Below, piece after piece: positions 36,993 through 54,005 of a stretch of DNA of 61,437 nt (position 1 is the stretch's first letter; every line of letters begins with the position of its first letter). Source of the stretch: Actinotalea sp. (GTDB lineage: Bacteria > Actinomycetota > Actinomycetes > Actinomycetales > Cellulomonadaceae); the NCBI GenBank assembly GCA_035433545.1, contig DAORVC010000004.1, positions 1 through 61,437 of the forward strand, in the 5' to 3' direction. The translations under genes were made by a program, and so were the position numbers. Below the pieces are notes generated by a model, which saw only the letters and a list, made by a program, of their open reading frames with translations, was not told where the DNA came from and did not search any database.

Positions 36993-38090
36993 TCACTCCT
37001 CGAAGGCCCCGACGTCGCAGCCCGCACCGATCGGCCGGACCACCCGCCGCTGGTCGAGGGAGACCCCGGCCGCGCACAGCACCGTGCGGCCGTCTGCGCC
37101 GCGCGCCCCGACGGGGATGGCGTCGAGGGCCGGGCTGTCTGCGCGCAGCGCCATGGTCTGCGTGGGGCCACCGTTCCAGGCCAGCGCCTCGAGGGCGACG
37201 TCGAGGATCCCCTCCGGGGCGTCGATCTGATCGCCCACGGTGGGCACGATCTCGCAGTACCACCCGTCCGTCGTCCCCATGACGACGTACCCGTTGGACA
37301 CCGCGGGGCCGGCGCAGTCGGATCCGGAGGCTCCGGCCTGGTTGCCCCCCAGCACGCTCGCCTCGAGGACGACGGCGGCCGAGGAGTCGATGTCCAGGCC
37401 ACCACCGATCCACTGCGCGGTGTTGCGCCCGACGGTGGAGTAGCTCAACCGGAGCGTCCCGGCCCCGACCGCGATCCCGCCGCCGTCGCCGTTCGACGTG
37501 TTGCCGGAGACCGTCGAGGTCGCGACGGTCGCCCGGCCGGTCGTGAAGAGGCCGCCGCCGCGCTCGGCCGTGTTCTCCGTGATGGTGCTGCGCTGCACCG
37601 CGAGCGTCCCCGTGCTGCTCACGCCACCGCCGTCGGTGCCGGTGTTGCCGCGCACCGTCGAGGAGAAGAGGGTCAGCGTGCCGCCGTTGAGCACCCCCGG
37701 GCCGGTGTCCCCTGACGGGTGGGTGACCAGCAGGCGCGTCATCGTGAGCCGTGCCCCGGCGGGCACGGCGACCGTCGGCTGACCCGCCCGCCCGACGAGC
37801 GTCGTCACGGGCACCGCCGCGGTCCACCGCCCGACGAGGCTGATGTCGGCCGCGACGACGATCGACCCGCGGCACACACCCTGCACCTCGATGACGTCGC
37901 CGGCGCGCGCCGCGGCCACGGCGCGGGCGAGCGCAGCCCCCGTGTCGGGGCCGTAGGTCACGCCCAGCGTGGTGTTGGTCGCGACGCACCCCCGGCCGCC
38001 GGCCGCCGCCGGACCGGCCGACAGCGCACCGACCGCGATCACCGCGAGGACGAGTGCCAAGACTCTGCGGGTACGCAGCACACCGGACAT
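36993..38090 (-). CDS. Secreted right-handed beta-helix protein with choice-of-anchor Q-like C-terminal domain
   Basis: Signal peptide, repeated STxxxNT/GGG motifs, C-terminal NGGPTQTMAL..SPALD..DQR..CDVGAFE. Confidence 0.75.
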   Translation of the reverse strand: MSGVLRTRRVLALVLAVIAVGALSAGPAAAGGRGCVATNTTLGVTYGPDTGAALARAVAAARAGDVIEVQGVCRGSIVVAADISLVGRWTAAVPVTTLVGRAGQPTVAVPAGARLTMTRLLVTHPSGDTGPGVLNGGTLTLFSSTVRGNTGTDGGGVSSTGTLAVQRSTITENTAERGGGLFTTGRATVATSTVSGNTSNGDGGGIAVGAGTLRLSYSTVGRNTAQWIGGGLDIDSSAAVVLEASVLGGNQAGASGSDCAGPAVSNGYVVMGTTDGWYCEIVPTVGDQIDAPEGILDVALEALAWNGGPTQTMALRADSPALDAIPVGARGADGRTVLCAAGVSLDQRRVVRPIGAGCDVGAFEE

Positions 38091-38199
38091 CGCAGCCACC
38101 TCCGTGGGGGCCCCGGCCGCCGGGGCCGATGACTCCAGCGCACTCCGGGGGCGGGCGCTCGTCCAGGGGACAAGGTCCCGACCGGAGGGACCGGCGCGC

Positions 38200-38949
38200 T
38201 CAGCCGCGCGCGGTCTGGGTGTTCGAGACCTGCGCGCGGGGCCGCACGACGATCGTGTCGAGGTTGACGTGGTGCGGCCGGGTGAGCGCGAAGGCGATGA
38301 CGTCGGCGACGTCGTCCGCCTCGAGCGGCTGGTAGCCCTCGTACACCTTCGCGGCCCGCTCGGCGTCGCCGCCGAACCGCACGAGCGCGAACTCCTGCGT
38401 CGCCACCGCGCCGGGCTCGACGTCGATGACGCGCACCGGCTGGCCGATGAGCTCCAGCCGCAGGGTGGTGGCGAGCATCCGCTCGGCGTGCTTGGCCGCG
38501 GTGTAGCCGCCGCCGCCCTCGTAGGGACCGATCGCCGCGGTGGAGGTCACGACGACGACGTCGCCGCGGCCCGACGCCACGATGAGTGGCAGCAGCGCCT
38601 GGGTGACCCGCAGCGTGCCCAGCACGTTGATCTCGTACATCCAGCGCCAGTCCTCGACGTCGGCCGTGGCGACCGGGTCCAGCCCGAGCGCCCCGCCGGC
38701 CACGTTGACGAGCGAGGTCAGCCCGCCGGTGGCGTCGCAGTGCTCGGCGAGCCGGGCGACGTCGTCCGCGCTCGTCAGATCGGCCGGGAACGGCTCGGCG
38801 CCGGTCTCGGCCGCGAGCCCGGCCAGCCGGTCCGCCCGCCGGGCGACGGCGACCACGTCCCAGCCCTCGGCGCACAGCCGGCGCACGGTGGCGGCGCCGA
38901 TCCCGGAGGACGCCCCGGTGACGACGGCGCGGGGTCGGTGCGTGCTCAT
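38200..38949 (-). CDS. SDR oxidoreductase, YdfG-like (candidate malonate-semialdehyde reductase)
   Basis: TGASSGIG, VARR (NADP preference), YEGGGGYTAAK, RPHHVN. ATGA overlap with the aminotransferase gene. Confidence 0.85.
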   Translation of the reverse strand: MSTHRPRAVVTGASSGIGAATVRRLCAEGWDVVAVARRADRLAGLAAETGAEPFPADLTSADDVARLAEHCDATGGLTSLVNVAGGALGLDPVATADVEDWRWMYEINVLGTLRVTQALLPLIVASGRGDVVVVTSTAAIGPYEGGGGYTAAKHAERMLATTLRLELIGQPVRVIDVEPGAVATQEFALVRFGGDAERAAKVYEGYQPLEADDVADVIAFALTRPHHVNLDTIVVRPRAQVSNTQTARG

Positions 38950-40280
38950 GGGGTCAGCTCCTCGTCGATGACGGTCAGTGCCTCGTCGTAGATCGCGAGC
39001 GCGCGGCGCACCTCGTCGTCGGTCACGACGCACGGCGGCACCACGTGCAGGCGGTTGTCCGCCAGGAAGGGCAGCAGCCCCCGTGCCATGAGCTCGGCCT
39101 TGAGCCGGCCCATGACCGCAGGTCCCACCGGCGTGCGGAGCTCGCGGTCGGACACCAGGTCGAGCGCCCAGAAGACGCCGAGGCCGCGCACGTCGCCGAC
39201 GATGCCGTGCCGTGCGGCGAGGTCTGCCAGCCCGGGGCCGAGGACCTCCACACCGATCCGGGCGGCGTTCGTCACGACCCCCTCGCGCTCCATCGCGTCG
39301 AGCGCCGCCACGATCGACGCCATCGCGAGCGGGTGGCCGGAGTACGTCAGGCCGCCGGGGAACACGCGGTCGTCGAAGGTGCGCGCCACGGCGTCCGAGA
39401 GGATCACCCCGCCGACCGGCACGTACCCCGAGTTGACGCCCTTGGCGAAGGTGATGAGGTCGGGGCGCACGCCGGTGTGGTCGAGCGCGAACCACGCTCC
39501 GGTGCGCCCGAAGCCCGCCATCACCTCGTCGAGGATCAGCAGGATGCCGTGGGCGTCTGCGAGCGCGCGGACCCCCTCGAGGTACCCCGGCGGCGGCACG
39601 AGCACCCCGCCCGTGCCCACGACCGTCTCGAGCAGGATCGCGGCGATCGAGGCGGGGCCCTCGGCCTCGACGACCCGGCGCAGGTGCGTCAGCGCTCGCT
39701 CCGACTCCTGCTCGGGCGTCGTGGCCCAGAACTCGGAGCGGTACAGGAACGGGCCGAAGAAGTGCACGTGGCCCCGTGCGTACTCGTTGGGCACGCGCCG
39801 CCAGTCCCCCGTCGCGACGATCGCCGCCCCGGTGTTGCCGTGGTACGAGCGGTACGCGGAGAGCACCTTGTCCCGGCCCGTGTGCAGGCGCGCCATCCGG
39901 ATGGCGTTCTCGTTGGCGTCGGCCCCGCCGTTGGTGAAGAAGACCTTGGACATGCCAGCCGGCGCGTGCGCGACGATCGCGGCGGCCGCGCGGCCGCGTG
40001 CGAGGTTGGCGTGGCCCGGCGCGACCGTCGCCAGCAGGGCCGCCTGCTCGGCGATCGCGGCGACGACGGCGGGATGGCCGTGCCCGATGTTGACGTTGAC
40101 CAGCTGGCTGGAGAAGTCGAGGTAGCGCCGGCCCTCGTGGTCCCAGACCTCGCTGCCCAGCCCGCCGGCGATGGCGAACGGGGCGAGCGCGCCCTGGGCG
40201 GACCACGAGTGGAAGACGTGCGCCCGGTCGAGGGCCAGGGTCAGGTCACCGGCTGCGGCGCCGGTCAGGGGATCGGTCAT
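38946..40280 (-). CDS. Class III PLP aminotransferase (candidate beta-alanine transaminase)
   Basis: YLDFSSQL, SYHG, DEVMAGFGRTG, FAKG (PLP Lys), GLTYSGHP. Confidence 0.9.
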   Translation of the reverse strand: MTDPLTGAAAGDLTLALDRAHVFHSWSAQGALAPFAIAGGLGSEVWDHEGRRYLDFSSQLVNVNIGHGHPAVVAAIAEQAALLATVAPGHANLARGRAAAAIVAHAPAGMSKVFFTNGGADANENAIRMARLHTGRDKVLSAYRSYHGNTGAAIVATGDWRRVPNEYARGHVHFFGPFLYRSEFWATTPEQESERALTHLRRVVEAEGPASIAAILLETVVGTGGVLVPPPGYLEGVRALADAHGILLILDEVMAGFGRTGAWFALDHTGVRPDLITFAKGVNSGYVPVGGVILSDAVARTFDDRVFPGGLTYSGHPLAMASIVAALDAMEREGVVTNAARIGVEVLGPGLADLAARHGIVGDVRGLGVFWALDLVSDRELRTPVGPAVMGRLKAELMARGLLPFLADNRLHVVPPCVVTDDEVRRALAIYDEALTVIDEELTP

Positions 40281-40317
40281 GGGCTCACCATTCCAGAACG
40301 GGCGGGGTGCGGGCAGG

Positions 40318-40358
40318 GGTGACCGGTCGGGGCGGGTGCGCCGCCCCGACCGGTCACC
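40318..40358 (-). terminator. 18-bp perfect stem-loop after the substrate-binding-protein gene
   Basis: GGTGACCGGTCGGGGCGG / CCGCCCCGACCGGTCACC with 5-nt loop, 9 nt after the SBP stop. Confidence 0.65.
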
Positions 40359-40367
40359 GCGGGTCGG

Positions 40368-41525
40368 TCAGCTGCCACCCGGGTTGAGCGTGACCTCGAT
40401 GGGCTCGAACCCCGCGCCGACGACGTCCAGCCCCTCTTCGGCGAGCTCTGCGAGCGCGCGCTCGACGTACGCGTTGGTGTAGGCCGTCTCCGGTGGGGCC
40501 GCCGTGATGATGGTGGCACCCGTCTCGTTGGACGTGGCCATCGCCATCTCGACGGTCGCGGCCCAGGCCTCGGGGTCGACCATGCCGATCCCGCCCGACG
40601 TGCTGGGCCAGATGAGCTTGTTGACCTCGTTGGTCATCCACAGCTGGTGGCTGGCCCCCAGGGTGGAGCCGGCCGCGGTCACCGCGTCGGCCGCGGCCTG
40701 GGCGTCGTCGCGCGCGAACATCCAGCCGCGGATCGAGGCCTTGAGGAACGCGACCGTCGTCTCGACGTACGCCTCGTCGTCGGCGAGGCGGGTGGCATCG
40801 GCCCAGATCGCGTCCTGGAGCATCGCCGTGCCGACCTCGTTCCAGTCGATGACCGTGAAGTCCTCCGGCTGGTAGAGCTCGCCCGTCTCGGGGTCCTCGG
40901 ACTCCAGCAGCTGGGCGTACTCGTTGTACGTCATCGCCTGCGCGGCGTCGATGTCCCCGGCCAGGAAGGCGTTCATGTCGAACGCCTGCTGGACGATCTC
41001 GAAGTCCGTGACGCCGGCCTGGTTGAGCCCGGCGAAGAGCTCCCACTCGTTGCCGTAGCCCCAGCTGCCGATCTGCTTGCCTGCGAGGTCCTCGACCGTC
41101 TCGATCCCCGCGTCGGCGAAGGCCACCTGGAGCGTGGCGGACCGCTCGAAGATCTGCGCCACGTTGGTGATCTCGGCACCCTGCTCGATGGAGCCGAGCA
41201 CCTTGGGCACCCACGCGATGGCGAAGTCCACCTCGCCGTTGGCCAGGGCGTCCTGCGGGACGATGTCCCCGCCGCTCGGGAGGATCTCGACCGCGAGCCC
41301 CTCCTCCTCGTAGTACCCCTCGGCGACCGCCGCGTAGTAGCCGGCGAACTGCGCCTGGGTGAGCCACTGGAGCTGCAGCGTCACCGGCGTCAGCTCGGTC
41401 CCGTCAGCGGTCTCCTCGGTCTGCGTGCCCTCCTCGCCAGCTGCGCTGGAGCAGCCCGCGAGCGCGAGCGCCGCGGCCACCCCGATGACCAGCGCCTGGG
41501 CGCCGGTGCGTGTGGTGATCCTCAT
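40368..41525 (-). CDS. ABC transporter substrate-binding lipoprotein, NMT1/THI5-like (probable pyrimidine binding)
   Basis: Lipobox LAGC, LQLQWLTQAQFAGYY, AMTYNE. GGAAGG RBS. Confidence 0.88.
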   Translation of the reverse strand: MRITTRTGAQALVIGVAAALALAGCSSAAGEEGTQTEETADGTELTPVTLQLQWLTQAQFAGYYAAVAEGYYEEEGLAVEILPSGGDIVPQDALANGEVDFAIAWVPKVLGSIEQGAEITNVAQIFERSATLQVAFADAGIETVEDLAGKQIGSWGYGNEWELFAGLNQAGVTDFEIVQQAFDMNAFLAGDIDAAQAMTYNEYAQLLESEDPETGELYQPEDFTVIDWNEVGTAMLQDAIWADATRLADDEAYVETTVAFLKASIRGWMFARDDAQAAADAVTAAGSTLGASHQLWMTNEVNKLIWPSTSGGIGMVDPEAWAATVEMAMATSNETGATIITAAPPETAYTNAYVERALAELAEEGLDVVGAGFEPIEVTLNPGGS

Positions 41526-41633
41526 GTCATCCCCTTCCGTGCCGGTGGGTCGTGCGGTGGGTCGTGCTGGTGAACGACCGACCTGGCGTCGTCGGCAGGC
41601 GGACATCGGGGGCGCCGCGGGGCGCGGGCGGGC

Positions 41634-42404
41634 TCAGGTCGCGCCCGACCGCCGCCGCACGAGGTGCTCGACGGCAAGCGTCGCGCCGAAGAAGACGAGC
41701 CCCACGAGGACGCCGCCGAGCACGAACGCCCAGGCCCGTGCGTAGTTGCTGCCGGCTGCTGCCGTCGTGATGAAGGACCCGATCCCCGAGCGCGGGCCGC
41801 CGAAGTACTCCGCGACGATGGCGGAGATGACGGCGAGCGACGACGCCATCCGCAGGCCCGTGAAGACGAAGGGCAGCGCCGCGGGGATCGTCACCGTGCG
41901 CGTCGCCTGACGCGGCGTCGCGGCGTACGCGCGCATGAGGTCGCGGTGGACCGGACGCACCTGGCGCAGCCCCCGGAGCGTGTTGACGTACACCGGCACG
42001 AGCACGGCGATCGCCGCGACGATCTGCCGGGCGACCTCCGAGGCGGCGCCGAACATCGTGTAGAGCACGGGGGCGAGCGCGACGATCGGCACGACGGCGA
42101 GGCCCGCGACCAGCGGCGCCATGAGGTCGTCCGCGAGCCTCGTCTGGCCGGCCACCACAGCCGCGCCGATCCCCACGGCCGAGCCGAGCAGCAGGCCCAC
42201 GAGGGCGTTGCTCCCGGTGACGAGGACCGCCTGGCTGATCGTCGGCCACATCGCGACCAGCTCGCCGCCGATCGCCGCCGGGCTGGGCAGGAGGAACGGC
42301 GGCACGTTCGCGACCACGACGAACGTCTGCCACGCCGCGACCAGCCCCACCAGCAGCAGGGCCGGCGCGAGGACCCTCTGCGCCACGGACGCCGTGCCCG
42401 TCAT
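41634..42404 (-). CDS. ABC transporter permease (SsuC/TauC-like)
   Basis: LLPSP, VPIVALAP, IPAALPFVFTGLR, AIVAEYFGG. Confidence 0.9.
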   Translation of the reverse strand: MTGTASVAQRVLAPALLLVGLVAAWQTFVVVANVPPFLLPSPAAIGGELVAMWPTISQAVLVTGSNALVGLLLGSAVGIGAAVVAGQTRLADDLMAPLVAGLAVVPIVALAPVLYTMFGAASEVARQIVAAIAVLVPVYVNTLRGLRQVRPVHRDLMRAYAATPRQATRTVTIPAALPFVFTGLRMASSLAVISAIVAEYFGGPRSGIGSFITTAAAGSNYARAWAFVLGGVLVGLVFFGATLAVEHLVRRRSGAT

Positions 42405-43207
42405 CGCGTCTCCACCCCACGCGAGGGCACGTCCGCCCGGCCGTGCAGGGCCTCGCGGACCTGCGTGATCGCGGCGAAGTAGCCGGCGTCCTCGCGCAGC
42501 CCGTCCGCCCGCTCCGAGCCGCGCCCCAGTCCGACCTCGACGACCTCGGTGATCCGGCCCGGCCGTGCCGACATGACGACCACCCGGTCGGAGAGGAACA
42601 CGGCCTCGGGGATGGAGTGCGTCACGAAGACGACGGCCGCCCTGGTCTCGGCGCAGATCCGGACGAGCTCGTTCTGCAGCCGCTCGCGGGTCATCTCGTC
42701 GAGCGCGCCGAACGGCTCGTCCATGAGCAGCAGGCTCGGCTCCTCGGCGATCGCGCGGGCGATCGCGACCCGCTGCTGCATGCCACCGGACAGCTGGTCG
42801 GGGTACGAGCCGGCGACGTCGCCGAGCCCGACCAGCTCGAGCAGGTGCTCCGCTCGCTCGCGCCGCTCCAGCTTGCCCGTGCCGTGCAGGGCGAGCGGCA
42901 GCTCGACGTTGGCCCGCACCGTGCGCCACGGCAGCAGCCCCGCCTGCTGGAACGCGATCCCGTAGTCGTGGGCGAGGCGGGCCTGCTCCGCGCTGCGCCC
43001 GAACACCGCGACCTGGCCCGTGGTGGGCTGGTCGAGGTCCGCCACGACGCGCAGCAGGGTGCTCTTGCCGCAGCCAGACGGGCCGATGAGCGAGACGAAC
43101 TCGCCCGCGGCGACCTGCAGGCTGACGTCGTCCAGCGCCGTCACCGCCGCCGGCCCCCGGCCGAACACCCGGCTGACCCCGACGACGCCCACGGCCACGG
43201 CGCTCAT
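42401..43207 (-). CDS. ABC transporter ATP-binding protein (SsuB/TauB-like)
   Basis: [29 protein letters not shown]. Confidence 0.93.
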
Positions 43208-44076
43208 GCGACGGCCTCCGCGCGGCGGTAGCGACCGAGCGGCACACCGAGCAGGCCCACGAGCCCGGCGACCACGAGGCCGAGCAGCACCGCCCCGAAG
43301 AGGGGCGCCCAGGGCTTGGCCGGGTCGCTGCTCGCGAAGCTGGCGAACTCCAGGATCATCCGGCCCACTCCTCCCGGGAGGCCCGTCGACACCTCCGCGA
43401 CGACGGTGCCCACCACGACGTTGGCCGCTGCGAGCCGCAGTGCCGGCAGCAGGTAGGGCACGCTCGCCGGCAGCCGCAGCCGCACGAGGGTGGTCCACCA
43501 GCCCGCGCCATAGGCGACCATGAGGTCGCGGTGGATCGCATCGGGCGACTGCAGCCCGCGCAGGGTGCCGACGGCGACCGGGAAGAACGCCAGGTAGGAC
43601 GCGATGACCACGACGGACATCCAGCCCTGCCACTCGAACGAGCCGAGCTCGAGCGTGCTCCCCCACCCCCGCACGAGCGGCGCGAGCGCGATGAGCGGGA
43701 CCGTCTGGCTCAGCACCACCAGGGGCAGCACGGCCTGCTCGACGATGCGGAACCGCGCCATCGCGACCGCGTACGCGAGCCCGACCGCGACGCCCAGCAC
43801 CCAGCTGAGCAGGGCGATCCCGAGGCTGAACGCCCCGGCCTGGAGCACCGCGACGGCCAGCACCGGGGCGCCCGGCGCCGCGGTGAGCGGGTCGCCGAGC
43901 CGGGCCACCATCTCCCAGACGTGCGGCATGGCGAGGTCGGTGGTCCGGGGCGCCAGGCGCAGCTCGCCGAGGCTCCAGCCCTCCTCCGGCCCGAGCAGCT
44001 TGTAGAGCTCCCAGGCGGCGGCGACCCCCGCCAGCGCGGCCAGGCCCAGCAGGGTGCCCCGCAGCCGCGCGCTCAT
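43204..44076 (-). CDS. ABC transporter permease
   Basis: SQTVPLIALAP, FFPVAV, LPASVPYL, VVAE. ATGA overlaps at both ends. Confidence 0.9.
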   Translation of the reverse strand: MSARLRGTLLGLAALAGVAAAWELYKLLGPEEGWSLGELRLAPRTTDLAMPHVWEMVARLGDPLTAAPGAPVLAVAVLQAGAFSLGIALLSWVLGVAVGLAYAVAMARFRIVEQAVLPLVVLSQTVPLIALAPLVRGWGSTLELGSFEWQGWMSVVVIASYLAFFPVAVGTLRGLQSPDAIHRDLMVAYGAGWWTTLVRLRLPASVPYLLPALRLAAANVVVGTVVAEVSTGLPGGVGRMILEFASFASSDPAKPWAPLFGAVLLGLVVAGLVGLLGVPLGRYRRAEAVA

Positions 44077-45104
44077 GCCGTCGCCACGACGTGGTCGCGG
44101 AGCGCGGGGATGACCCGCTCGCCGTACATCCGCAGGGTCTCCTCCTTGTTGTCGTGCTGGAGGTACCCGGCGAACTGGGTGACGCCGAGGTCGCGCAGGG
44201 CGGCCAGCTTCTCGACGTGCTCGCGCGGGCTGCCGAGCAGGCAGAACCGCTCGACGATCTCGTCTGGCACGAAGGCGGCGTGGCTGTTGCCCGCCCTGCC
44301 GTGCTCGTTGTAGTCGTAGCCCTGGCGCCCGGCGACGTAGTCGGTCAGCGCCTGCGGCACGTCCGAGCCGGAGCCGTACTTGGTGACGATGTCGGCGACG
44401 TGGTTGCCCACCATGCCGCCGAACCAGCGGCACTGCTCGCGCATGTGGGCACGCTCGGCCGGCGCGTCGCCGTTGCCGACGTACATCGGGGCCGCGACGC
44501 AGAACTTGATCGACATCGGGTCGCGGCCGGCGGCCTCGGCAGCGTCCCGGACCGCCTTGATCATCCAGGCGGCGATGTCTAGGTCCGCGAGCTGGAGGAT
44601 GAACCCGTCACCCACCTCCCCCGTCAGGCGCAGGGCCAGGGGGCCGTAGGCCGCGACCCACACGTCCATGACCGAGCCATGGCTCCACGGGAACCGGACG
44701 GTCGTGCCGTTGACGTCCACCGCCCGGCTGTTCGCCAGCTCACGGATGACGTGCACGGACTCGCGCAGCGTGGCCAGGTTGCTCGGCCTGCCGCCCAGCG
44801 TGCGCACCGCGGAGTCCCCCCTGCCGATCCCGCAGATGGTCCGGTTGCCGTACATCTCGTTGAGCGTGGCGAACAGCGAGGCGATGACCGTCCAGTCCCG
44901 CGTGGCGGGGTTGGTGACCATCGGCCCGACGACGACGCGCCGGGTCGCCGCGAGGATCGCGGAGTAGATGACGAAGGGCTCCTGCCAGAGCAGGTGCGAG
45001 TCGAACGTCCACACGTGGCTGAACCCGTGGGTCTCCGCCTGACGCGCGAGCTCGACCGTCCGCGAGGCGGGCGGGTTGGTCTGCAGGACGACGCCGAAGT
45101 CCAT
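44073..45104 (-). CDS. Mer-like LLM-class putative F420-dependent oxidoreductase (TIGR03842-like)
   Basis: MDFGVVLQ, WTFDSHLLWQEP, GPMVTNP, GIGRGDS, AAYGP. Motifs resemble methylene-H4MPT reductase-type LLMs. Confidence 0.85.
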   Translation of the reverse strand: MDFGVVLQTNPPASRTVELARQAETHGFSHVWTFDSHLLWQEPFVIYSAILAATRRVVVGPMVTNPATRDWTVIASLFATLNEMYGNRTICGIGRGDSAVRTLGGRPSNLATLRESVHVIRELANSRAVDVNGTTVRFPWSHGSVMDVWVAAYGPLALRLTGEVGDGFILQLADLDIAAWMIKAVRDAAEAAGRDPMSIKFCVAAPMYVGNGDAPAERAHMREQCRWFGGMVGNHVADIVTKYGSGSDVPQALTDYVAGRQGYDYNEHGRAGNSHAAFVPDEIVERFCLLGSPREHVEKLAALRDLGVTQFAGYLQHDNKEETLRMYGERVIPALRDHVVATA

Positions 45105-45153
45105 CGTGGCTCCCATCGGTCCGGTGGGGGCGGGGGTACCGCCCACCAGGGGG

Positions 45154-46572
45154 TCAGGCCGGGTACTGGCTCTCGCCGCGGTGCAGGTACTGCCCGTGCC
45201 CGGCGCGACCGTGGAAGGCCCCGTCGTCGATCACCACGGAACCGCGGGAGAGCACGGTGTCGACGTGACCGTCGACCTCGAACCCCTCCCACGACGAGTG
45301 GTCGATCGCCATGTGGTGGGTCTTGTCGAACCCGATGGACGTGTGGCCCGCCGGGTCGTAGACGACGATGTCGGCATCGGCGCCGGGGGCGATGACGCCC
45401 TTGCGCCCGGCGAGGCCGAACATCCGCGCCGGCGTGGTCGAGCACAGCTCGACCCAGCGTTCGAGGGTGATCCTGCCCGTGACGACGCCCTGGTACACGA
45501 GGTCCATCCGGTGCTCGACGGTGCCCATCCCGTTGGGGATCTTGCGGAAGTCGCCCAGCCCCAGCTCCTTCTGGCCGACCTGGCAGAACGGGCAGTGGTC
45601 GGTCGCGACCATCTGCAGGTCGTTGGTCCGCAGGGCCCGCCAGATGTGGTCCTGATGCTCGTCCGCCGTGGACCGCAGCGGCGGCGAGCACACGTACTTG
45701 GCGCCCTCGAACCCGGGCGCGCCCAGGTGCTCCTCGAGGCCCAGGTACATGTACTGCGGGCACGTCTCGGCGAAGACGCGCTGGCCGCGGTCGCGCGCCG
45801 CGGCGATCTGGTCGACCGCCTGCTTGGCCGAGACGTGCACGATGTACAGCGGTGAGCCGGCGACGTCGGCGAGCATGATCGCCCGGTGCGTGGCCTCCTC
45901 CTCCATCTGCCACACGCGCGCGACCCCGTGGTAGTACGGGTCCGTCTTGCCGGCCGCGACCAGCTGCTCGGCCAGGACGTCGATCGCCGGTCCGTTCTCC
46001 GCGTGCATCATCGGCAGCAGACCGTGCCCGGCCGCCACCTGGAACGCGCGGAGCAGCTCGCCGTCGCCGGAGTAGAACACCCCGGGGTAGGCCATGAACA
46101 TCTTGAAGCTCGTCACGCCCTGGCTCGGCAGCCAGGTCAGAGCCTTGAGCGAGTCCTCGTCGACGCCGCCGACGATCTGGTGGAAGCCGTAGTCGACCGC
46201 GCAGGTGCCGGCCGCCTTGGCGTGCCAGGCCTCCAGCCCGTCCTGGATCCGCGTCCCGGCGGTCTGCACGGCGAAGTCGATGATCGCCGTGGTGCCGCCC
46301 CAGGCCGCGGCCCTTGTCCCGGTCTCGAAGGTGTCCGACGCGTGCGTGCCGCCGAACGGCAGCTCCATGTGCGTGTGCGCGTCGATCCCGCCAGGGATGA
46401 CGTACTTCCCGGTCGCGTCGATGACGCGGTCGACGTTCGCCGCGACGTCGAAGCCGAGGAGCGACGAGCCCGGGGCGAGGACGGCGACGATCGTCTCGCC
46501 GTCGACGAGCACGTCCGCCGCCCCGCGTCCGGTCGCGTTGACGACGGTGCCGCCGCTGATGAGGGTCTTCAC
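45154..46572 (-). CDS. hydA: Dihydropyrimidinase
   Basis: PGGIDAHTH, GTTAIIDF, SFKMFMAY (carbamylated Lys), HAENG, YIVHVS, ETCPQY, TDHCPF. Confidence 0.93.
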   Translation of the reverse strand: MKTLISGGTVVNATGRGAADVLVDGETIVAVLAPGSSLLGFDVAANVDRVIDATGKYVIPGGIDAHTHMELPFGGTHASDTFETGTRAAAWGGTTAIIDFAVQTAGTRIQDGLEAWHAKAAGTCAVDYGFHQIVGGVDEDSLKALTWLPSQGVTSFKMFMAYPGVFYSGDGELLRAFQVAAGHGLLPMMHAENGPAIDVLAEQLVAAGKTDPYYHGVARVWQMEEEATHRAIMLADVAGSPLYIVHVSAKQAVDQIAAARDRGQRVFAETCPQYMYLGLEEHLGAPGFEGAKYVCSPPLRSTADEHQDHIWRALRTNDLQMVATDHCPFCQVGQKELGLGDFRKIPNGMGTVEHRMDLVYQGVVTGRITLERWVELCSTTPARMFGLAGRKGVIAPGADADIVVYDPAGHTSIGFDKTHHMAIDHSSWEGFEVDGHVDTVLSRGSVVIDDGAFHGRAGHGQYLHRGESQYPA

Positions 46573-46597
46573 GGGTGTCCTTCGGGGGTGCGGGCGG

Positions 46598-47446
46598 TCA
46601 CGGGGCGACGATGGGGCCGTAGGCCTCCGGGCGGCGGTCGCGGAAGAACTGCCATCGCTCGCGGACCTCGCGGATCGCGCCCAGGTCGACGTCGCGCAGG
46701 ATGTAGCCCGCCTCGGTCGAGCTCGCCACCTCCCCCACGACGTTGCCGTCCGGACCGACGACGTACGAGGAGCCGTAGAACGCGACCGCATCGTCGCCGT
46801 ACTCGTTGGTCTCGGCGCCCACCCGGTTGTTCGCCGCGACGAAGTACCCGTTGGCGATGGCCGCGGCGGGCTGCTCGATCTCCCAGAGCCGGTTGGAGAT
46901 GCCCGGCGCCGTCGCGTTGGGGTTGAAGACGATCTCCGCGCCGGCCAGGCCGAGGACGCGCCACCCCTCGGGGAAGTGCCGGTCGTAGCAGATGTTGACG
47001 CCGATGGTGCCGACGGCCGTCTCGAAGACCGGGTAGCCGAGGTTGCCCGGGCGGAAGTAGAACTTCTCCCAGAACTTCGGCAGGTGCGGGATGTGGTGCT
47101 TGCGGTACTTGCCGAGGTAGGAGCCGTCGGCGTCGACGACCGCAGCGGTGTTGTAGAGCACCCCCGGCTGGTCCTCCTCGTAGACCGGCAGCACCATGAC
47201 CATGCCCAGCTCCTTGGCGAGCGCGGCGAACCGGTCGACCGTCGGCCCGGGCACCGACTCGGCGTAGGCGTAGTAGGCGGGGTCCTGGGTGATCCCGAAG
47301 TACGGCCCGTAGAAGAGCTCCTGGAACGCGATGACCTGGGCACCCTCGGCCGCCGCCGCGCGCGCGTACCCCTCGTGGCGGACGATCATCGACTCCTTGT
47401 CGCCCGTCCACGGGGTCTGGGTCAGGGCCACGCGAACGACGCTCAT
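46598..47446 (-). CDS. Nitrilase-superfamily beta-ureidopropionase (N-carbamoyl-beta-alanine amidohydrolase)
   Basis: QELF, YRKHHIP, FWEKFYF, ICYDRHFPE (Glu-Lys-Cys triad), ANNRVG, FYGSS. Confidence 0.88.
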   Translation of the reverse strand: MSVVRVALTQTPWTGDKESMIVRHEGYARAAAAEGAQVIAFQELFYGPYFGITQDPAYYAYAESVPGPTVDRFAALAKELGMVMVLPVYEEDQPGVLYNTAAVVDADGSYLGKYRKHHIPHLPKFWEKFYFRPGNLGYPVFETAVGTIGVNICYDRHFPEGWRVLGLAGAEIVFNPNATAPGISNRLWEIEQPAAAIANGYFVAANNRVGAETNEYGDDAVAFYGSSYVVGPDGNVVGEVASSTEAGYILRDVDLGAIREVRERWQFFRDRRPEAYGPIVAP

Positions 47447-47587: not shown

Positions 47588-47673
47588 CACTGGGACACGG
47601 ACCGTGACCTCGACGGCGTCCGCACCTGCGCGCCGGGGCCCGGAGCGCGTCGCCGGTGACGAGGAGGTGGGCC

Positions 47674-49017
47674 GTGCCGCAGGTGCTCCGCGTCGTGGCC
47701 GACGCGGTCGAGGACCGCAGCCCCCGTGGCATCGCCGCGGCGATCTCCCGCCTGGTGCTCGACGGCGCCCTGCCCGCCGGCACCCGTCTGCCCACCGTCC
47801 GCGAGCTGGGTGCCGCGCTGGGGGTGAGCCCCGCCACCGTGAGCCACGCGTTCCGCGCCCTGGCCGGGGTGGGGCTCGTCGCGTCGCGCGGCCGGGCCGG
47901 GACCCGCGTGCTGGGCACGGGCACGACGTGGCTGCCGCCGCGCTACCGCGACCTCGCCGGCCCGCACGGCGGCTTCCGCCTCGACCTCTCCACCGGCACC
48001 CCCGACCCGCTGCTGCTGCCCGACCTCGCACCCGTGCTCGCCGGGCTCGGCTCGCGCGCCCTGACCACGAGCTACCTCGACACCCCCGTGCTGCCGGGTC
48101 TCGAGCAGCACCTGCGCTCGTCGTGGCCCTACCCGGTCGAGGCGGTGACCGTCGTCGACGGCGCGTTCGATGCGATGGCACGCTCGCTCGAGCTGCTCGT
48201 GCGGTTCGGCGACCGCGTGGTCGTCGAGAACCCGTGCTTCCCGCCCCTGCTCGACCTGCTCGACCAGCTCGGCGCCGAGCGCGTCCCGGTGCCGACGGAC
48301 GAGGCAGGTCTGGTGCCTGCGGGCTTCGCGGCGGCCCTGGCCACCGCACCGGCGGCCGTGGTGCTCCAGCCCCGCGCGCACAACCCGACCGGGGTCTCGC
48401 TGACGCCCGGCCGTGCCGCCGAGCTCGCCGGCGCGCTGCGCGGTCACCGGGATGCCGAGCGCACCGTCGTCGTCGAGGACGACCACTCCGGCGCGGTCTC
48501 GACCGCCGCCGACGTGAGCCTCGGCACCCACGTGCCCGAGCGTGTGCTCCATGTGCGCTCGTTCTCGAAGTCGCACGGGCCGGACCTGCGGATCGCCGCG
48601 CTCGGGGGCCCGGCGGCGCTCGTCGACCGGATCGTCGCGCGGCGCATGCTCGGGCCGGGCTGGACCAGCCGGATGCTCCAGCAGGTGCTGCTCGAGCTGC
48701 TCACCGGGAACGACGGGATCCTGGCCGTGACCGAGGCACGCCGGGCCTACCACGCGCGGCAGCGCGAGATGGTCAGGGCACTGCACGCCCACGGCGCGGC
48801 GGCGTCACCCGGTGACGGCGTGAACCTGTGGTTGCCGGTCGCCTCCGAGAGCGAGGCGATCGTCCACCTCGCCGCGGCCGGGGTGAGGGTCGCACCCGGG
48901 AGGCCGTTCGGCTCCGGGCCCGCCGACGGTCCGGAGCACGTGCGGGTGACGGTCGGGCTGGTGCGCGGCGACGTCGACGCCCTGGGTCGTCTGCTCGCCG
49001 CTGCCGCGGCCGCCTGA
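47674..49017 (+). CDS. MocR/GabR family regulator (GntR HTH plus PLP aminotransferase-like domain)
   Basis: LPTVRELGAALGVSPATV HTH, HNPTG, EDD, SFSKS (PLP Lys). AGGAGG RBS before GTG 47674. Confidence 0.9.
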   Translation: MPQVLRVVADAVEDRSPRGIAAAISRLVLDGALPAGTRLPTVRELGAALGVSPATVSHAFRALAGVGLVASRGRAGTRVLGTGTTWLPPRYRDLAGPHGGFRLDLSTGTPDPLLLPDLAPVLAGLGSRALTTSYLDTPVLPGLEQHLRSSWPYPVEAVTVVDGAFDAMARSLELLVRFGDRVVVENPCFPPLLDLLDQLGAERVPVPTDEAGLVPAGFAAALATAPAAVVLQPRAHNPTGVSLTPGRAAELAGALRGHRDAERTVVVEDDHSGAVSTAADVSLGTHVPERVLHVRSFSKSHGPDLRIAALGGPAALVDRIVARRMLGPGWTSRMLQQVLLELLTGNDGILAVTEARRAYHARQREMVRALHAHGAAASPGDGVNLWLPVASESEAIVHLAAAGVRVAPGRPFGSGPADGPEHVRVTVGLVRGDVDALGRLLAAAAAA

Positions 49018-49164: not shown

Positions 49165-50193
49165 GTGCGCACTCGCCCCCTCGTCCGTCCCGGCCCTGCC
49201 CTGGTGGCCGCCGCCGCGGGGTGCGCGCTCCTCGCCGGGTGCGCCTCGGCGACCGGCACCTCGACGTCGGCCGCCCCGAGCCGCCCCCCGGCCGGCGACA
49301 CCGCGGCCACCGAGGCCTACCCGCTGACGCTCGACAACTGCGGCGTCGAGGTCACCCTCACCGGGGCCCCCGAGCGCATCGTGGCGATCAAGTCCAGTGC
49401 CATCGAGATGCTGCTCGCGCTGGGCGTCGGCGACCGCATCGTCGGCACCGGCTTCCCCGACGGCCCGCCGCCGGCCGAGCTCGCGGACGCCGCCGCAGAG
49501 CTCCCCCAGCTCTCGGACAAGGTCCCGGCCGCCGAGGTGGTGCTCGCGGCAGAGCCCGACCTCGTCGTGGCGGGCTGGGAGTCCAACCTCACCGCCGAGG
49601 GCGCCGGGGACCGCGCCACCTTCGCCGACCTCGGCGTGGCCACCTACGTCGCGCCGTCGGCGTGCAAGGACCCGGCCTACCAGCCCGACCGGCTGACGTT
49701 CGAGGAGGTCTTCGCCGAGATCACGCAGATGGGCGACGTGCTGGGGGTGCCGGACGCCGCTGCCGACCTCGTCGAGGCCCAGCGGGCCGACCTCGCCGCG
49801 CTGGAGCCGGACGGGCGGGGCCTCACCGCGCTGTGGTACTCCTCGGGCGACGACATCCCCTACGTCGGGGCCGGCATCGGCGCACCGCAGATGATCCTCG
49901 ACGCCGTGGGCGTGACGAACATCGCCGCCGGTCTCGCCGACACCTGGAGCCCGTTCAGCTGGGAGCAGGTGGCGCAGGACGACCCGGACCTCATCGTCCT
50001 GGTCGACGCCGCCTGGAACAGCGCGGAGCAGAAGCGCGAGCGGCTGGCGGCGAACCCCGCGACGGCCCACCTCACCGCTGTGCTCGAGGGGCGCTACCTC
50101 GTGGTGCCGTTCGCGGCGACGGAGGCGGGCGTGCGCAACGTCGAGGCGGCCGTCGACCTCGCCGGGCAGGTCGCGGCGCTCGACCTCGGATGA
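49165..50193 (+). CDS. Putative F420-0/FO ABC transporter substrate-binding lipoprotein (TIGR03868-like)
   Basis: Lipobox LAGC, YPLTLDNCG, GWESN, YVAPSAC, PYVGAGIGAP, PFAATEAGVR. Fe-siderophore/B12-type SBP in an operon with cofD. Confidence 0.8.
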   Translation: MRTRPLVRPGPALVAAAAGCALLAGCASATGTSTSAAPSRPPAGDTAATEAYPLTLDNCGVEVTLTGAPERIVAIKSSAIEMLLALGVGDRIVGTGFPDGPPPAELADAAAELPQLSDKVPAAEVVLAAEPDLVVAGWESNLTAEGAGDRATFADLGVATYVAPSACKDPAYQPDRLTFEEVFAEITQMGDVLGVPDAAADLVEAQRADLAALEPDGRGLTALWYSSGDDIPYVGAGIGAPQMILDAVGVTNIAAGLADTWSPFSWEQVAQDDPDLIVLVDAAWNSAEQKRERLAANPATAHLTAVLEGRYLVVPFAATEAGVRNVEAAVDLAGQVAALDLG

Positions 50194-51314
50194 CCGGCAG
50201 CCAGCCGACCGGGACACCCGACGCCGGTACGCCAGGTCGAGGCCCCCTCCGCACCGGCCGCCTCCGCACCGGCCCCCTCCGCACCGGGCCCGCCGTCGTC
50301 GGCGCCGCGGTGCTGCTGCTCGCCTCCGTGACGGCCGCGGTGACGGTCGGTCCGGCCGGGATCGCACCGGCGGACGTCTGGGGCTCGATCGGCCACCACC
50401 TCGCCGCGCTGCTCGCGCCCGGTGGGGCCGGGGCCGAGCCGCCCCTCGGCCCGCTGCTCGACGGCGTCGTGTGGGACCTGCGCCTGCCGCGCGTGCTCAC
50501 GGCCGGGGCCGTCGGCGCGGGGCTCGCGGTCGCCGGCACGGTCATGCAGTCGCTGACGCGCAACCCGCTCGCGGACCCGTACCTGCTCGGGCTCTCCTCT
50601 GGCGCGTCGCTCGGCGCGGTCGCCGTGCTCGTGCTGGGCGCCGGCGTGCTGCTGCCGGTCGCGGCGTTCGCCGGGGCGCTGGCGGCGCTCGCTGCCGCGC
50701 TGGGGCTCGCCGGGTCGCTCGGCACACTGACGCCCGCGCGCACCGTGCTCGCGGGGCTGGCGGTGGCCCAGCTCGCCGCAGCGGGGACCTCCTTCATCAT
50801 CTTCTGGTCGGCGACCGGGGACTCCTACCGCGAGATCCTCGCGTGGCTCATGGGCTCGCTCGCCGGGGCGGACTGGCCGGCCGTCGCCATCGCCGGCGGC
50901 GCGGTGCTCGTGCTCGGCGTCGGGCTGACCGCCAGCGCGCGCACGCTCGACGCGTTCACCTTCGGGGACACCGCTGCCGCGGCGCTGGGCGTGGACGTGG
51001 CGCGCACGCGATGGCTGCTGCTCACGGTGGTCGCGCTGCTCACCGGCGCGCTGGTCGCGGTGAGCGGGTCGATCGGGTTCGTCGGGCTCATCGTGCCGCA
51101 CGCCGTGCGCCTCGTGGCGGGCGGCGCCCACCGCCGGCTGCTGCCGCTCGTCGCGCTCGTCGGCGCGACGTTCCTCGTCTGGGCGGACACCGCGGCGCGC
51201 ACGCTCTTCGAGCCGCGCGAGCTGCCCGTCGGCATCGTCACGGCGTTCCTCGGTGCGCCCGTCTTCGCGGCGATCCTCTGGCGGCGGCGCAGCGCGAGCG
51301 AGGACCTCGCATGA
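50190..51314 (+). CDS. Putative F420-0/FO ABC transporter permease (FecCD family)
   Basis: LRLPRV, RNPLADPYLLGLSSGA, SGSIGFVGLIVPH, ELPVG. Confidence 0.85.
   Translation: MTGSQPTGTPDAGTPGRGPLRTGRLRTGPLRTGPAVVGAAVLLLASVTAAVTVGPAGIAPADVWGSIGHHLAALLAPGGAGAEPPLGPLLDGVVWDLRLPRVLTAGAVGAGLAVAGTVMQSLTRNPLADPYLLGLSSGASLGAVAVLVLGAGVLLPVAAFAGALAALAAALGLAGSLGTLTPARTVLAGLAVAQLAAAGTSFIIFWSATGDSYREILAWLMGSLAGADWPAVAIAGGAVLVLGVGLTASARTLDAFTFGDTAAAALGVDVARTRWLLLTVVALLTGALVAVSGSIGFVGLIVPHAVRLVAGGAHRRLLPLVALVGATFLVWADTAARTLFEPRELPVGIVTAFLGAPVFAAILWRRRSASEDLA
50241..50285 (+). repeat. 15-bp tandem repeat x3 (GPLRT/GRLRT/GPLRT)
   Basis: GGCCCCCTCCGCACC, GGCCGCCTCCGCACC, GGCCCCCTCCGCACC, in frame in the permease N-terminus. 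Confidence 0.85.
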
Positions 51315-51333
51315 GCCCGGACGGCGGTCGACC

Positions 51334-52176
51334 GTGACCCTGGACCTCGACCACCTGACGTGGTCCGTCGACGGCCAACGCATCCTCGACGCCGTGGACG
51401 TCGCGGCGCCCGCCGGTGCGCTCACGGGGCTGCTGGGTCCCAACGGCGCGGGCAAGTCCACCCTGCTGCGGCTGGTCAGCGGGGTGCTCGCACCCGGCGC
51501 CGGCCGCGTGACCCTGGGCGGGCAGGACCTGCTGGCGCTCCCCCGGCGGGCGCGGGCCCGCCGCGTCGCCCTCGTCGAGCAGGAGTCGACCGTGCCGGCG
51601 TCCGTGACGGTGCGCGAGGCCGTGCTGCTGGGTCGCACCCCGCACGCCTCACACTGGGGCGGGCTCACCGCGCGCGACCACGCGGTGGCCGACGCCGCCC
51701 TGGCCGAGGTCGATGCCACCGCACTGGCGCACCGGCTGCTCGTCACCCTGTCGGGCGGCGAGCGTCAGCGCGTGCACCTGGCCCGCGCGCTGGCCCAGGA
51801 GCCGGCGCTCCTGCTGCTCGACGAGCCGACCAACCACCTGGACGTGCACGCCCAGCTCGACACCCTCGCCGTCGTGCGCCGGCTGACCGCGCGCGGGGTG
51901 ACGGTGCTCGCGGCGCTGCACGACCTCAACCTCGCCGCGACGGCGTGCGACCACCTCGTGCTGCTCGACGCCGGGCGCGTGGTCGCGGCAGGGTCGGTGC
52001 ACGACGTGCTGCGGCCGGAGGTGCTCGAACCCGTCTACCGGGTGCGGTGCACCGTGCTGCTCCACCCGCGGACGGGGCGCCCCGTGCTGACCTTCGATCC
52101 CGCGGACGGGCCGCCACCCGGCGGCACCGCCGACGTCACCCCTGACGTCCCCGACACCCGGAGGCCCCCACCATGA
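51334..52176 (+). CDS. Putative F420-0/FO ABC transporter ATP-binding protein
   Basis: GPNGAGKST, LSGGERQR, DEPTNHLD, LHDLNLA. ATGA overlap with cofD. Confidence 0.88.
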   Translation: MTLDLDHLTWSVDGQRILDAVDVAAPAGALTGLLGPNGAGKSTLLRLVSGVLAPGAGRVTLGGQDLLALPRRARARRVALVEQESTVPASVTVREAVLLGRTPHASHWGGLTARDHAVADAALAEVDATALAHRLLVTLSGGERQRVHLARALAQEPALLLLDEPTNHLDVHAQLDTLAVVRRLTARGVTVLAALHDLNLAATACDHLVLLDAGRVVAAGSVHDVLRPEVLEPVYRVRCTVLLHPRTGRPVLTFDPADGPPPGGTADVTPDVPDTRRPPP

Positions 52177-53165
52177 CCCAGCGCATCGTCCTGCTCGCCG
52201 GCGGCGTCGGCGGGGCGCAGTTCACCCTCGGACTGCGCGAGCACCTCGCCGCGACCGGGGTCGACGCCGAGGTCACCGTCGTGGTCAACACCGGCGACGA
52301 CCTGTGGCTCGACGGCCTGCGGGTCTGCCCCGACCTGGACACGGTGATGTACACGCTCGGCGGGGTGATCGGCGAGCAGGGCTGGGGCCGCGCGGGCGAG
52401 AGCACCCGGGTCGCCGCGGAGCTGCACGCCTACGGGCTCGGCTGGGACTGGTTCACGCTCGGCGACCTCGACCTGGGGACGCACGTGGCGCGCACCGAGC
52501 TGCTGCGCCAGGGGCGCACGCTCACCCAGGTCACCGCGCGGCTGTGCGAGCGCTGGGCACCCGGCGTGCGCCTGCTGCCGATGTCCGACCAGCCCGTCGA
52601 GACGCACGTGGAGGTCGAGCTCGACGGGCGGGTGCGACTCCTCCACTTCGAGGAGTGGTGGGTGCGGCTGCGGGCGGCCGTCCCGGCGCGACGGTTCGTC
52701 CAGGTGGGCCTCGGGGACGCCGCGCCCGCGCCCGAGGTGCTGGCAGCGCTCGCGCACGCCGACGTCGTGCTGCTGCCGCCCTCCAACCCCGTCGTCTCGA
52801 TCGGGACGATCCTGGGCCTGGCGCCGCTCCGCGACGCCCTGCTGGCGACACCGGCCCCCGTCGTCGGGGTGTCCCCGATCATCGGCGGGGCGCCCGTGCG
52901 CGGGATGGCCGACGCGTGCCTCGCGGCGATCGGCGTGCCGACGACGGCGGAGGCCGTCGCCCTGCACTACGGCGCGCGGTCCGCCGGCGGGCTGCTCGAC
53001 GGCTGGCTGGTCGACACCGCCGACGCGGACGCGCTGCCCGGGCTGACCGCGGCGGGGATCGCGGCGCGTGCGCTGCCCCTGCTCATGACCGACGAGGCGT
53101 CGACGTCTGCCATCGTCGCGGCGGCGCTCGACCTCGCGTCCGCGCGGGCCCGTGCGGCTCAGTAG
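52173..53165 (+). CDS. cofD: 2-phospho-L-lactate/PEP transferase (F420 biosynthesis), CofD/FbiA
   Basis: LAGGVGGA, VNTGDD, CPDLDTVMYTL, WFTLGDLD, HFEEWWV, PSNPVVSI, GMAD. Confidence 0.94.
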   Translation: MTQRIVLLAGGVGGAQFTLGLREHLAATGVDAEVTVVVNTGDDLWLDGLRVCPDLDTVMYTLGGVIGEQGWGRAGESTRVAAELHAYGLGWDWFTLGDLDLGTHVARTELLRQGRTLTQVTARLCERWAPGVRLLPMSDQPVETHVEVELDGRVRLLHFEEWWVRLRAAVPARRFVQVGLGDAAPAPEVLAALAHADVVLLPPSNPVVSIGTILGLAPLRDALLATPAPVVGVSPIIGGAPVRGMADACLAAIGVPTTAEAVALHYGARSAGGLLDGWLVDTADADALPGLTAAGIAARALPLLMTDEASTSAIVAAALDLASARARAAQ

Positions 53166-53198: not shown

Positions 53199-54005
53199 GT
53201 GCTGGCGCTGACGACCGCCCTGCGCTCCGTCACGGGCGCGTACCGGCGCGGCAACCAGGACGCGGTGGGCTGCTCCGACGACTACGCGTTCGTCGCAGAC
53301 GGCGTGGGCGGCAACGCGGGCGGCGACGTCGCGTCGTGGACGGTGACGCACCGTGCGATGTCGAGCCTCGCCACGCTGCGCCGACCCCTGGGCGAGGCCC
53401 GGCTGCGCGCCGTGCTGGCCGACGCCAACGCGGAGCTCGGGCTGCGGGTGGGCCGGGAGCCGGCGCTGACGGGGATGGCGACCACCTTCACGGGCCTGTT
53501 CTGCGGCACCCGCTCGGTCCGGGTGGCCCACATCGGCGACTCGCGCGCGCACCTGCTCCGCGGCGGGCGGCTGCGCCGCGTCACCGACGACCACTCGCTG
53601 GTCCAGATGCTCGTCGACTCCGGCCACCTCACCGCCGAGCAGGCCGCCCACCACCCGCAGCGCAACATCATCACGCGCTCGCTGTCCGGCCGGCCGGTGG
53701 ACGCCGGCGGCATCGAGGTGCGCACCGTGCGCGCGGCCCCGGGCGACCGGTGGCTGCTGGCGAGCGACGGCCTGACGGACTACGTGCCCCACCGCGACGT
53801 CGCGGAGCTGGTCGCGCGCGGCGGGCCGGAGGAGGCAGCAGACGCGCTCGTCTCCCGTGCGCTCGAGCTCGACGCACGCGACAACGTCAGCGTCCTGGTG
53901 TGCGACGTGGTCGAGGTGGGCGGTGGGCCCAGGCCACGGCCGTACCGCTGCGGCGGGTCCGCGGCCGCACCGGAGCTCGGCACGGTCATCGACCTGTCGC
54001 GCTGA
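53199..54005 (+). CDS. PP2C-family Ser/Thr phosphatase
   Basis: RRGNQD, VADGVGG, HIGDSR, DHSLV, RNIITRSL, SDGL, DNVS. Confidence 0.92.
   Translation: MLALTTALRSVTGAYRRGNQDAVGCSDDYAFVADGVGGNAGGDVASWTVTHRAMSSLATLRRPLGEARLRAVLADANAELGLRVGREPALTGMATTFTGLFCGTRSVRVAHIGDSRAHLLRGGRLRRVTDDHSLVQMLVDSGHLTAEQAAHHPQRNIITRSLSGRPVDAGGIEVRTVRAAPGDRWLLASDGLTDYVPHRDVAELVARGGPEEAADALVSRALELDARDNVSVLVCDVVEVGGGPRPRPYRCGGSAAAPELGTVIDLSR

Follow-up and report, generated by a model that had tools for sequence, protein, structure and literature searches.

A TIGR03842 luciferase-like protein as the predicted F420H2-dependent first enzyme of pyrimidine breakdown in an Actinotalea operon

The window analyzed here, a 61,437-nt stretch of Actinotalea sp. 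(assembly GCA_035433545.1, contig DAORVC010000004.1, positions 1-61,437 of the forward strand; source genome 88% complete), contains nine co-oriented minus-strand genes within 38200-47446 (Table 1). They encode a nitrilase-family hydrolase, a dihydropyrimidinase, a luciferase-like hydride transferase (LLM) of family TIGR03842, an ATP-binding cassette (ABC) system with an NMT1/THI5-like binding protein, a class III aminotransferase, and a short-chain dehydrogenase/reductase (SDR). The initial annotation had named these genes and placed them in one operon, and all were recovered on the minus strand by hidden Markov model (HMM) matches. Its description of the genes as co-oriented stands, but not that of mostly overlapping genes: only four of the eight junctions overlap, by 4 bp, the others being gaps of about 25, 49, 108, and 87 bp. 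The reported absence of preT and preA from the operon was confirmed. We consider it probable, at roughly 85%, that the TIGR03842 LLM is an F420H2-dependent uracil/thymine reductase unrelated to PreTA. This predicted step-1 role, first proposed from the operon itself, is supported by co-occurrence with hydA, near-complementarity to PreA, and sequence and fold matches to F420 enzymes.

Table 1. Genes of the operon and its surroundings in the window, with the matches that identify them
Feature	Position	Strand	Evidence and remarks
Secreted-looking protein	36993..38099		Choice-of-anchor Q domain
SDR, YdfG-like	38200..38949	-	PF00106; NF007829 (YdfG) 174 bits, below the 411 cut-off
Class III aminotransferase	38946..40280	-	NF004718, 741 bits
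NMT1/THI5-like binding protein	40368..41525	-	PF09084
ABC permease 2	41634..42404	-	PF00528
ABC ATPase (NitT/TauT type)	42401..43207	-	PF00005
ABC permease 1	43204..44076	-	PF00528; 4-bp overlap with LLM stop
TIGR03842 LLM, 343 aa	44073..45104	-	TIGR03842, 585 bits
Dihydropyrimidinase (HydA/PydB, step 2)	45154..46572	-	TIGR02033, 526 bits, cut-off 393; GTG start codon
Nitrilase-family hydrolase	46598..47446	-	PF00795, 224 bits
MocR/GabR-family regulator	47656..49017	+	PF00392 and PF00155; divergent from the operon
Putative F420-0/FO ABC importer (binding protein, permease, ATPase)	49165..52176	+	TIGR03868 and TIGR03869 over cut-off
cofD	52173..53165	+	TIGR01819 over cut-off
PP2C-type phosphatase	53199..54005		
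cofE and cofC	54729..55583 and 54073..54732	-	TIGR01916 and TIGR03552 over cut-off
Fgd-family LLM	55583..56593	-	TIGR03557, 286 bits, cut-off 210

The LLM scores 585.5 bits against TIGR03842 (F420_CPS_4043; cut-off 295.45), covering model positions 1-329 of 329, while the runner-up family reaches 120 bits; the proposed family membership is thus confirmed far over the cut-off. Its nearest named relatives come from Actinotalea (up to 93%) and Cellulomonas, and PF00296 is its only Pfam match, with none to PF01180 or to an iron-sulfur (Fe-S) domain. A structure model built from an alignment of 38 sequences, with a predicted local distance difference test (pLDDT) score of 91.2, is a Mer-like barrel, its (beta/alpha)8 fold being nearest to F420 enzymes. 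The 15 best fold matches of this model are all F420 enzymes (Z 28.9-35.8), headed by Mer, the F420-dependent methylene-tetrahydromethanopterin reductase (Z 35.8, root-mean-square deviation 2.6, 313 residues aligned), and RutA ranks 39th (Z 24.7). The best sequence matches are likewise F420 hydride transferases, and TIGR03612, the model for RutA, is absent from the 25 NCBIfam families that match the LLM at E up to 0.001.

Mer is also the nearest sequence (E 2.5e-33), although the two share only about 28% identity and the LLM scores 120 and 114 bits against Mer cut-offs of 276 and 349. Moreover, Glu6, which is catalytic in Mer (PMC11094777), is replaced by Val, and the LLM has no C1-carrier context. 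A Mer function was ruled out on the missing glutamate and the low scores. The residues shared with Mer are Asp96, which contacts the pyrimidine ring of the pterin (PMC11094777), Val62, and the carboxamide at position 178 (Gln178 in that paper, Asn by count in the aligned chain), corresponding to D97, V63, and Q171 of the LLM. Both D97 and Q171 are invariant in all 26 TIGR03842 members compared, as are D35, H37, W40, V63, W227, F228, N234, H235, Y263-D264-Y265, and H268. Where Mer has a non-prolyl cis-peptide (Gly61-Val62) beneath the deazaflavin ring, the invariant V63 follows M, C, F, or L at position 62. The pocket that holds the pterin's pyrimidine ring in Mer may hold uracil in the LLM.

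No PreA/PydA-type enzyme was found in the 88%-complete source genome: E. coli PreA matches only a quinone-type PyrD (18.6 bits), the sole PF01180 gene of the genome, and three PreT-like matches are glutamate-synthase small-subunit-type proteins. A preTA pair elsewhere in the genome, raised initially as the contrary evidence to look for, was therefore not found. To place the LLM in its phylum, four families were profiled in 301 Actinomycetota genomes (300 drawn evenly plus the source genome), counting hydA at E up to 1e-90 and PreA at its cut-off and comparing the lists by hand; TIGR03842 occurs in 63 genomes, hydA in 94, cofD in 184, and PreA in 1. Every LLM genome carries hydA (63/63), within 10 kb of the LLM in 54, and the predicted co-occurrence is borne out. 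The F420 gene cofD accompanies the LLM in 61 of 63 genomes versus 123 of 238 without it, the two misses being 96-97% complete. The 63 include G088, and the 12 purine clusters described below include G018 and G120 (flagged unpublished); no conclusion depends on these. Since PreA passed its cut-off in a single genome, a test of PreA/LLM exclusivity within the phylum was discarded, and exclusivity was examined in Alphaproteobacteria instead.

Among the 62 other LLM loci, 20 were fetched for family spread. Their step-3 enzyme is a nitrilase in 12 and a Zn-carbamoylase in six (four called by HMM and two by clustering), with none seen in two, and their transporter is an NMT1-type ABC system in nine and NCS1 in six. 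Given this variation, the LLM stays constant with the pathway while other parts are swapped for unrelated ones. The hydA genomes without LLM number 31, of which 19 were fetched; HMM matches or cluster membership identified 12 of these loci as purine or uric-acid clusters, the remainder being lone genes or genes at contig ends, so these genomes were discounted as counter-examples. The clusters L047-L053, L056, and L057, with PucD, SsnA, YgeW, YgeY, and YgeX, have no PreA-type or TIGR03842 gene in the fetched stretch. Two of the 19 loci (L059:10621-11646 and L060:13469-14536) hold a different Mer-like LLM, 29-31% identical, beside xanthine dehydrogenase and hydantoinase; TIGR03842 is not among its best five families, and these proteins branch apart in a quick tree. 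They fit the F420 yanthine reductase that has been proposed, to date only for Chloroflexota. Scanning metagenomes with a distant TIGR03842 member yielded two loci. In one, L204:4532-11844, a distant member has hydA, three nitrilase-family genes, and a Zn-carbamoylase on its flanks. The other, L205, has two LLM genes in tandem.

The relationship between the LLM and PreA was tested in Stappiaceae, sampled as one LLM-bearing centre and 110 genomes drawn evenly. Of these 111 genomes, 21 have the LLM, 88 PreA, one both, and three neither, and those three also lack hydA. Among the 106 with hydA, 86 have PreA only, 19 the LLM only, one both, and none neither; in G418, one of the 21, both the LLM and hydA are split into two pieces, which put their scores under the cut-offs. 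With a PreA-bearing genome as reference, the flanks of the preTA site match in five LLM-bearing Roseibium but preTA does not, and in G331 these flanks lie 1.0 kb apart versus 3.7 kb in the PreA genome. In the family of Paracoccus denitrificans (161 genomes), PreA is absent from five of six LLM genomes, one of the five being the chosen centre, versus 22 of 155 others. Fisher values for such counts overstate the association because kin genomes are not independent.

The strong evidence for F420 comes from Pseudomonadota rather than from the Actinotalea locus. A GTDB scan returned 381 related stretches, of which the best 80, hence kin of the query, were used. In 75 of these 80 best proteobacterial loci, cofG, cofH, cofD, and cofE lie within 10 kb of the LLM; 78 have an Fno or Fgd-family gene, and none has PreT/PreA within its flanks. 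A Pyd enzyme or RutR-like TetR regulator was found in the flanks of 51. In Leisingera caerulea, a cofG-cofH-cofD-cofC-cofE-npdG run has the LLM at its end, with the RutR-like TetR gene next, and the cassette is divergent from genes for a transhydrogenase, aminotransferase, Zn-hydrolase, HydA, and NCS1. The cassette likewise lies between pydC-hydA and a RutR-like TetR gene in Leisingera, Pseudovibrio, and P. denitrificans. Membrane transhydrogenase genes, which would feed NADPH to Fno, were seen inside the LLM-F420-Pyd cluster at L088:5245-8271 and in nine of the 80 best loci. Searching plasmids turned up 13 records, which belong to Leisingera, Paracoccus, and Streptomyces. On a contig titled Nocardioides marinus (L092), the cassette LLM is 98% identical to that of Leisingera, and assembly contamination or mislabelling is likely.

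At the Actinotalea locus, the F420 genes reported next to the operon (49.1-56.6 kb) are present, with the importer's TIGR03873 match (369.6 bits) just under its cut-off of 372.4. The Fgd-family LLM is the likely source of F420H2 in this organism, in which no Fno passed its cut-off. An FO synthase (cofH/fbiC) was not found in this genome, nor in five of five congeners that are 99-100% complete; F420 would consequently rest on imported FO or F420-0, and the genus looks like a deazaflavin scavenger. The congeners G609, G610, G612, G613, and G618 have the F420-0 importer, cofC, cofD, cofE, and the Fgd-family gene, with no FO synthase found. The PP2C-type phosphatase gene that interrupts the cof genes was not found in five compared congener stretches.

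Several observations weigh against the LLM as the F420H2-dependent first enzyme, or limit the evidence for it. The absence of PreA is uninformative in a phylum where it was found in 1 of 301 genomes. The block running from the binding protein to the MocR gene is colinear in five of 12 congeners and was not found in seven (three of them 94-99% complete), yet in congeners without it these F420 genes are still present and adjoin the aminotransferase and SDR genes directly; in G610, which lacks the block, these two genes directly join the F420-0 importer. The F420 genes beside the operon are thus older than the operon or outlast it, and the aminotransferase and SDR may serve beta-alanine or taurine independently of the block. 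Because block-less congeners keep the F420 genes, their position next door, offered initially as support, counts weakly and is not operon-specific. A dedicated supply of the LLM by these genes was ruled out, as the genome holds 10 LLM genes and block-less congeners keep the F420 locus.

The proteobacterial evidence also has its limits. A Pyd enzyme (at least 45% identity) lies within the flanks of only 34 of the 80 best loci, a lower bound because about 6 kb of the flank is taken up by the cassette itself and many contigs stop shortly upstream. On the Paracoccus alcaliphilus plasmid, no Pyd enzyme, including hydA, lies within 14 kb of the cassette (L087:17851-25839); the genes that come after it encode an ABC system, an adenosylcobinamide amidohydrolase, and a formate dehydrogenase, with selA. 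The Roseibium cassette does not occupy the former preTA site: in-place replacement was sought and not found, as 18 LLM loci and 10 preTA loci share no flank save one NMT1 gene. Furthermore, the Stappiaceae genomes are kin, and their pattern represents at least two acquisitions rather than 21 events, since the Roseibium cassette is Fgd-type and that of Pseudovibrio Fno-type, and a quick tree places the two on different branches, with modest support. From the 80 proteobacterial LLM genomes, 50 were selected after near-duplicates and short contigs were dropped; hydA is present in 48 of them and PreA also in 16. Leisingera and Limimaricola are among the genera with both systems. The mutual exclusivity with preTA that had been proposed is therefore not strict, although the two are near-complementary in two alphaproteobacterial families. 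In 14 of these 16 genomes hydA is present at least twice, which fits a second copy of the pathway. Two genomes of Shimia, by contrast, have only one hydA, which lies next to preA, and no Pyd enzyme was seen within 10 kb of their LLM-F420 cassette; this coexistence could be redundancy after transfer or reflect a different substrate range. In the literature searched, no enzyme assay or LLM mutant was found. In favor of the pathway role are indirect nitrogen data on Mycobacterium smegmatis msmeg_3554, a presumed TIGR03842 member whose length and place fit. This gene, annotated as Mer, is reported to sit between hydantoinase and hydrolase genes, to rise 2.5-fold on nitrogen depletion, and to fall (log2 -5.2) in a glnR mutant, with msmeg_3553-3555 under nitrogen and GlnR control (PMC4617892, PMC13718301). 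The 2015 study of this organism stated that not all genes of the pyrimidine-breakdown pathway had been identified (PMC4617892).

Some of these observations would also suit other roles. The LLM could be an F420H2 ring reductase of a narrower or different heterocycle, such as thymine only, a 5-substituted or damaged pyrimidine, or a purine-derived ring, overlapping PreTA in part. Hydantoinases are broad in substrate, which counts for such a role, as does the coexistence of PreA with the LLM in 16 of 50 genomes. The separate Mer-like LLM of the purine clusters (2/19 loci) points the same way, given the similar role proposed for yanthine (PMC12507026). Nevertheless, we regard this explanation as unlikely: the neighbors of TIGR03842 are Pyd genes rather than xanthine dehydrogenase or SsnA, each of the 106 hydA-bearing Stappiaceae carries PreA or the LLM, with both in a single genome, and preTA is missing from its site in LLM carriers.

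Clearly less probable is that the LLM acts later or only recycles a cofactor, for example by reducing malonic semialdehyde, with the pathway starting from dihydropyrimidines or an unrecognised step-1 enzyme. Some LLM cassettes are indeed unlinked from hydA, and the search for a step-1 enzyme covered those of PreA/PydA type; the complementarity of the LLM to PreA, however, is at odds with a later step. The malonic semialdehyde step is also already covered where a malonate-semialdehyde dehydrogenase adjoins the LLM, as it does in at least seven of the 20 fetched loci. We give least credence to a RutA-like monooxygenase that opens the uracil ring oxidatively with reduced flavin mononucleotide (FMNH2) and O2. 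RutA shares the superfamily and barrel fold and binds uracil (PDB title), and a RutR-like regulator stands beside many LLM loci, but TIGR03612 is missing from the 25 matched families, RutA is only 39th by fold, and the partners of the LLM are F420 synthesis, Fno/Fgd, and dihydropyrimidinase, which needs a reduced ring.

Gene content, family, fold, and distribution are shown by the data, whereas cofactor, substrate, and direction are inferred; if the LLM is the F420H2-dependent first enzyme, the route would run as follows. The ABC system would import a pyrimidine base; the NMT1/THI5-like protein likely binds a pyrimidine, and homologues of it adjoin preTA and hydA in Stappiaceae. The LLM would then pass a hydride from F420H2 to C5=C6 of uracil or thymine, directly and with no bound flavin or Fe-S chain, giving the 5,6-dihydro base, and HydA would open the dihydro ring and pull the reaction forward. 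The nitrilase-family hydrolase, likely the beta-ureidopropionase (PydC, step 3), would yield NH3, CO2, and beta-alanine (or 3-aminoisobutyrate). Among PDB entries it matches beta-ureidopropionases (E 1e-55 to 1e-51) about as well as N-carbamoylputrescine amidohydrolases (1e-54), so the name beta-ureidopropionase given in the initial annotation does not follow from sequence alone; the genomic context supports the PydC role. The class III aminotransferase, likely a PydD-like beta-alanine transaminase, would take the second nitrogen; taurine is a rival substrate, the enzyme's nearest structure being the taurine:2-oxoglutarate aminotransferase 6jix (E 3e-105). The SDR, likely a malonic semialdehyde reductase (PydE role), would reduce the semialdehyde. 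The Fgd-family enzyme would supply F420H2 here, with FO or F420-0 imported, and Fno or Fgd would do so in Pseudomonadota. The divergent MocR-family regulator, which was gained or lost jointly with the pyrimidine block among the congeners, likely controls the operon. A promoter and terminator scan returned no promoters and two terminator-like sites versus 1.0 expected, and viral contigs gave no match. A gene for a secreted-looking protein lies immediately downstream of the SDR gene.

Compared with PydA, PreT/PreA, and the ferredoxin-dependent PydAc (PMC7332683), the LLM has the same predicted reaction and the same place in the pathway, with PydB, PydC, PydD, and PydE. Those enzymes, however, belong to the dihydroorotate-dehydrogenase family, contain FMN and [4Fe-4S] centers, and are fed by NAD(P)H or ferredoxin (PMC7332683), whereas the LLM is a 343-aa luciferase-like barrel; it may function as a dihydropyrimidine dehydrogenase without belonging to that family. 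The putative F420 yanthine reductase of Chloroflexota uric-acid clusters (PMC12507026) offers the only printed parallel found, as a luciferase-family F420 enzyme proposed to replace a PydA-like ring reductase, but belongs to a purine pathway. For YgfK, whose reaction is related, activity has been reported only in coupled form. NpsU/SSGG-03002 of napsamycin/mureidomycin biosynthesis (PMC10714638), a putative F420/FMN enzyme, is needed for reduction of the uracil C5=C6 bond according to knockout and nuclear magnetic resonance data. It differs in length (443 aa), in its weak PPOX-class matches with no LLM match in the supplement, and in its antibiotic-tailoring role, and its reported in vitro assay failed (PMC10714638). 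RutA shares the luciferase-like fold and the uracil substrate but cleaves the ring with FMNH2 and O2. None of the papers found gives TIGR03842, or any F420 enzyme, a role in uracil catabolism, in a search with most subscription journals, the 2019 Pyd-pathway paper, and bioRxiv supplements outside its scope; the term TIGR03842 returned 0 papers in the same scope, and the available parts of PMC12516864 and PMC11578590 give annotations only.

Taken together, the data make a well-supported case for a predicted non-homologous replacement of dihydropyrimidine dehydrogenase by the LLM. Somewhat less certain, though still probable, is the broader view that TIGR03842 constitutes a single-domain, flavin-free, iron-free class of F420H2-driven dihydropyrimidine dehydrogenases unrelated to PydA/PreTA, performing step 1 in the aerobic Actinomycetota that carry the pathway, and that many marine and soil Pseudomonadota, including P. 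denitrificans, acquired the whole F420 cassette mainly for this enzyme, some then losing preTA. Why Proteobacteria make F420 is a question printed as open (PMC8498797), and this broader view, if true, would answer it for these bacteria. Given that the F420 genes of P. denitrificans lie inside a pyrimidine-breakdown cluster with the LLM, F420 is predicted to rise there on uracil. The pyrimidine pathway itself is known; its first enzyme and the cofactor would be new. If correct, the assignment would provide a function for a widespread enzyme family without an assigned role, supply the step that is missing at the start of pyrimidine breakdown in streptomycetes and other Actinomycetota, and show clearly how one enzyme can be replaced by a non-homologous one that uses a different cofactor. 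A small, Fe-S-free enzyme that reduces the aromatic ring of pyrimidines would also be of use in biocatalysis.

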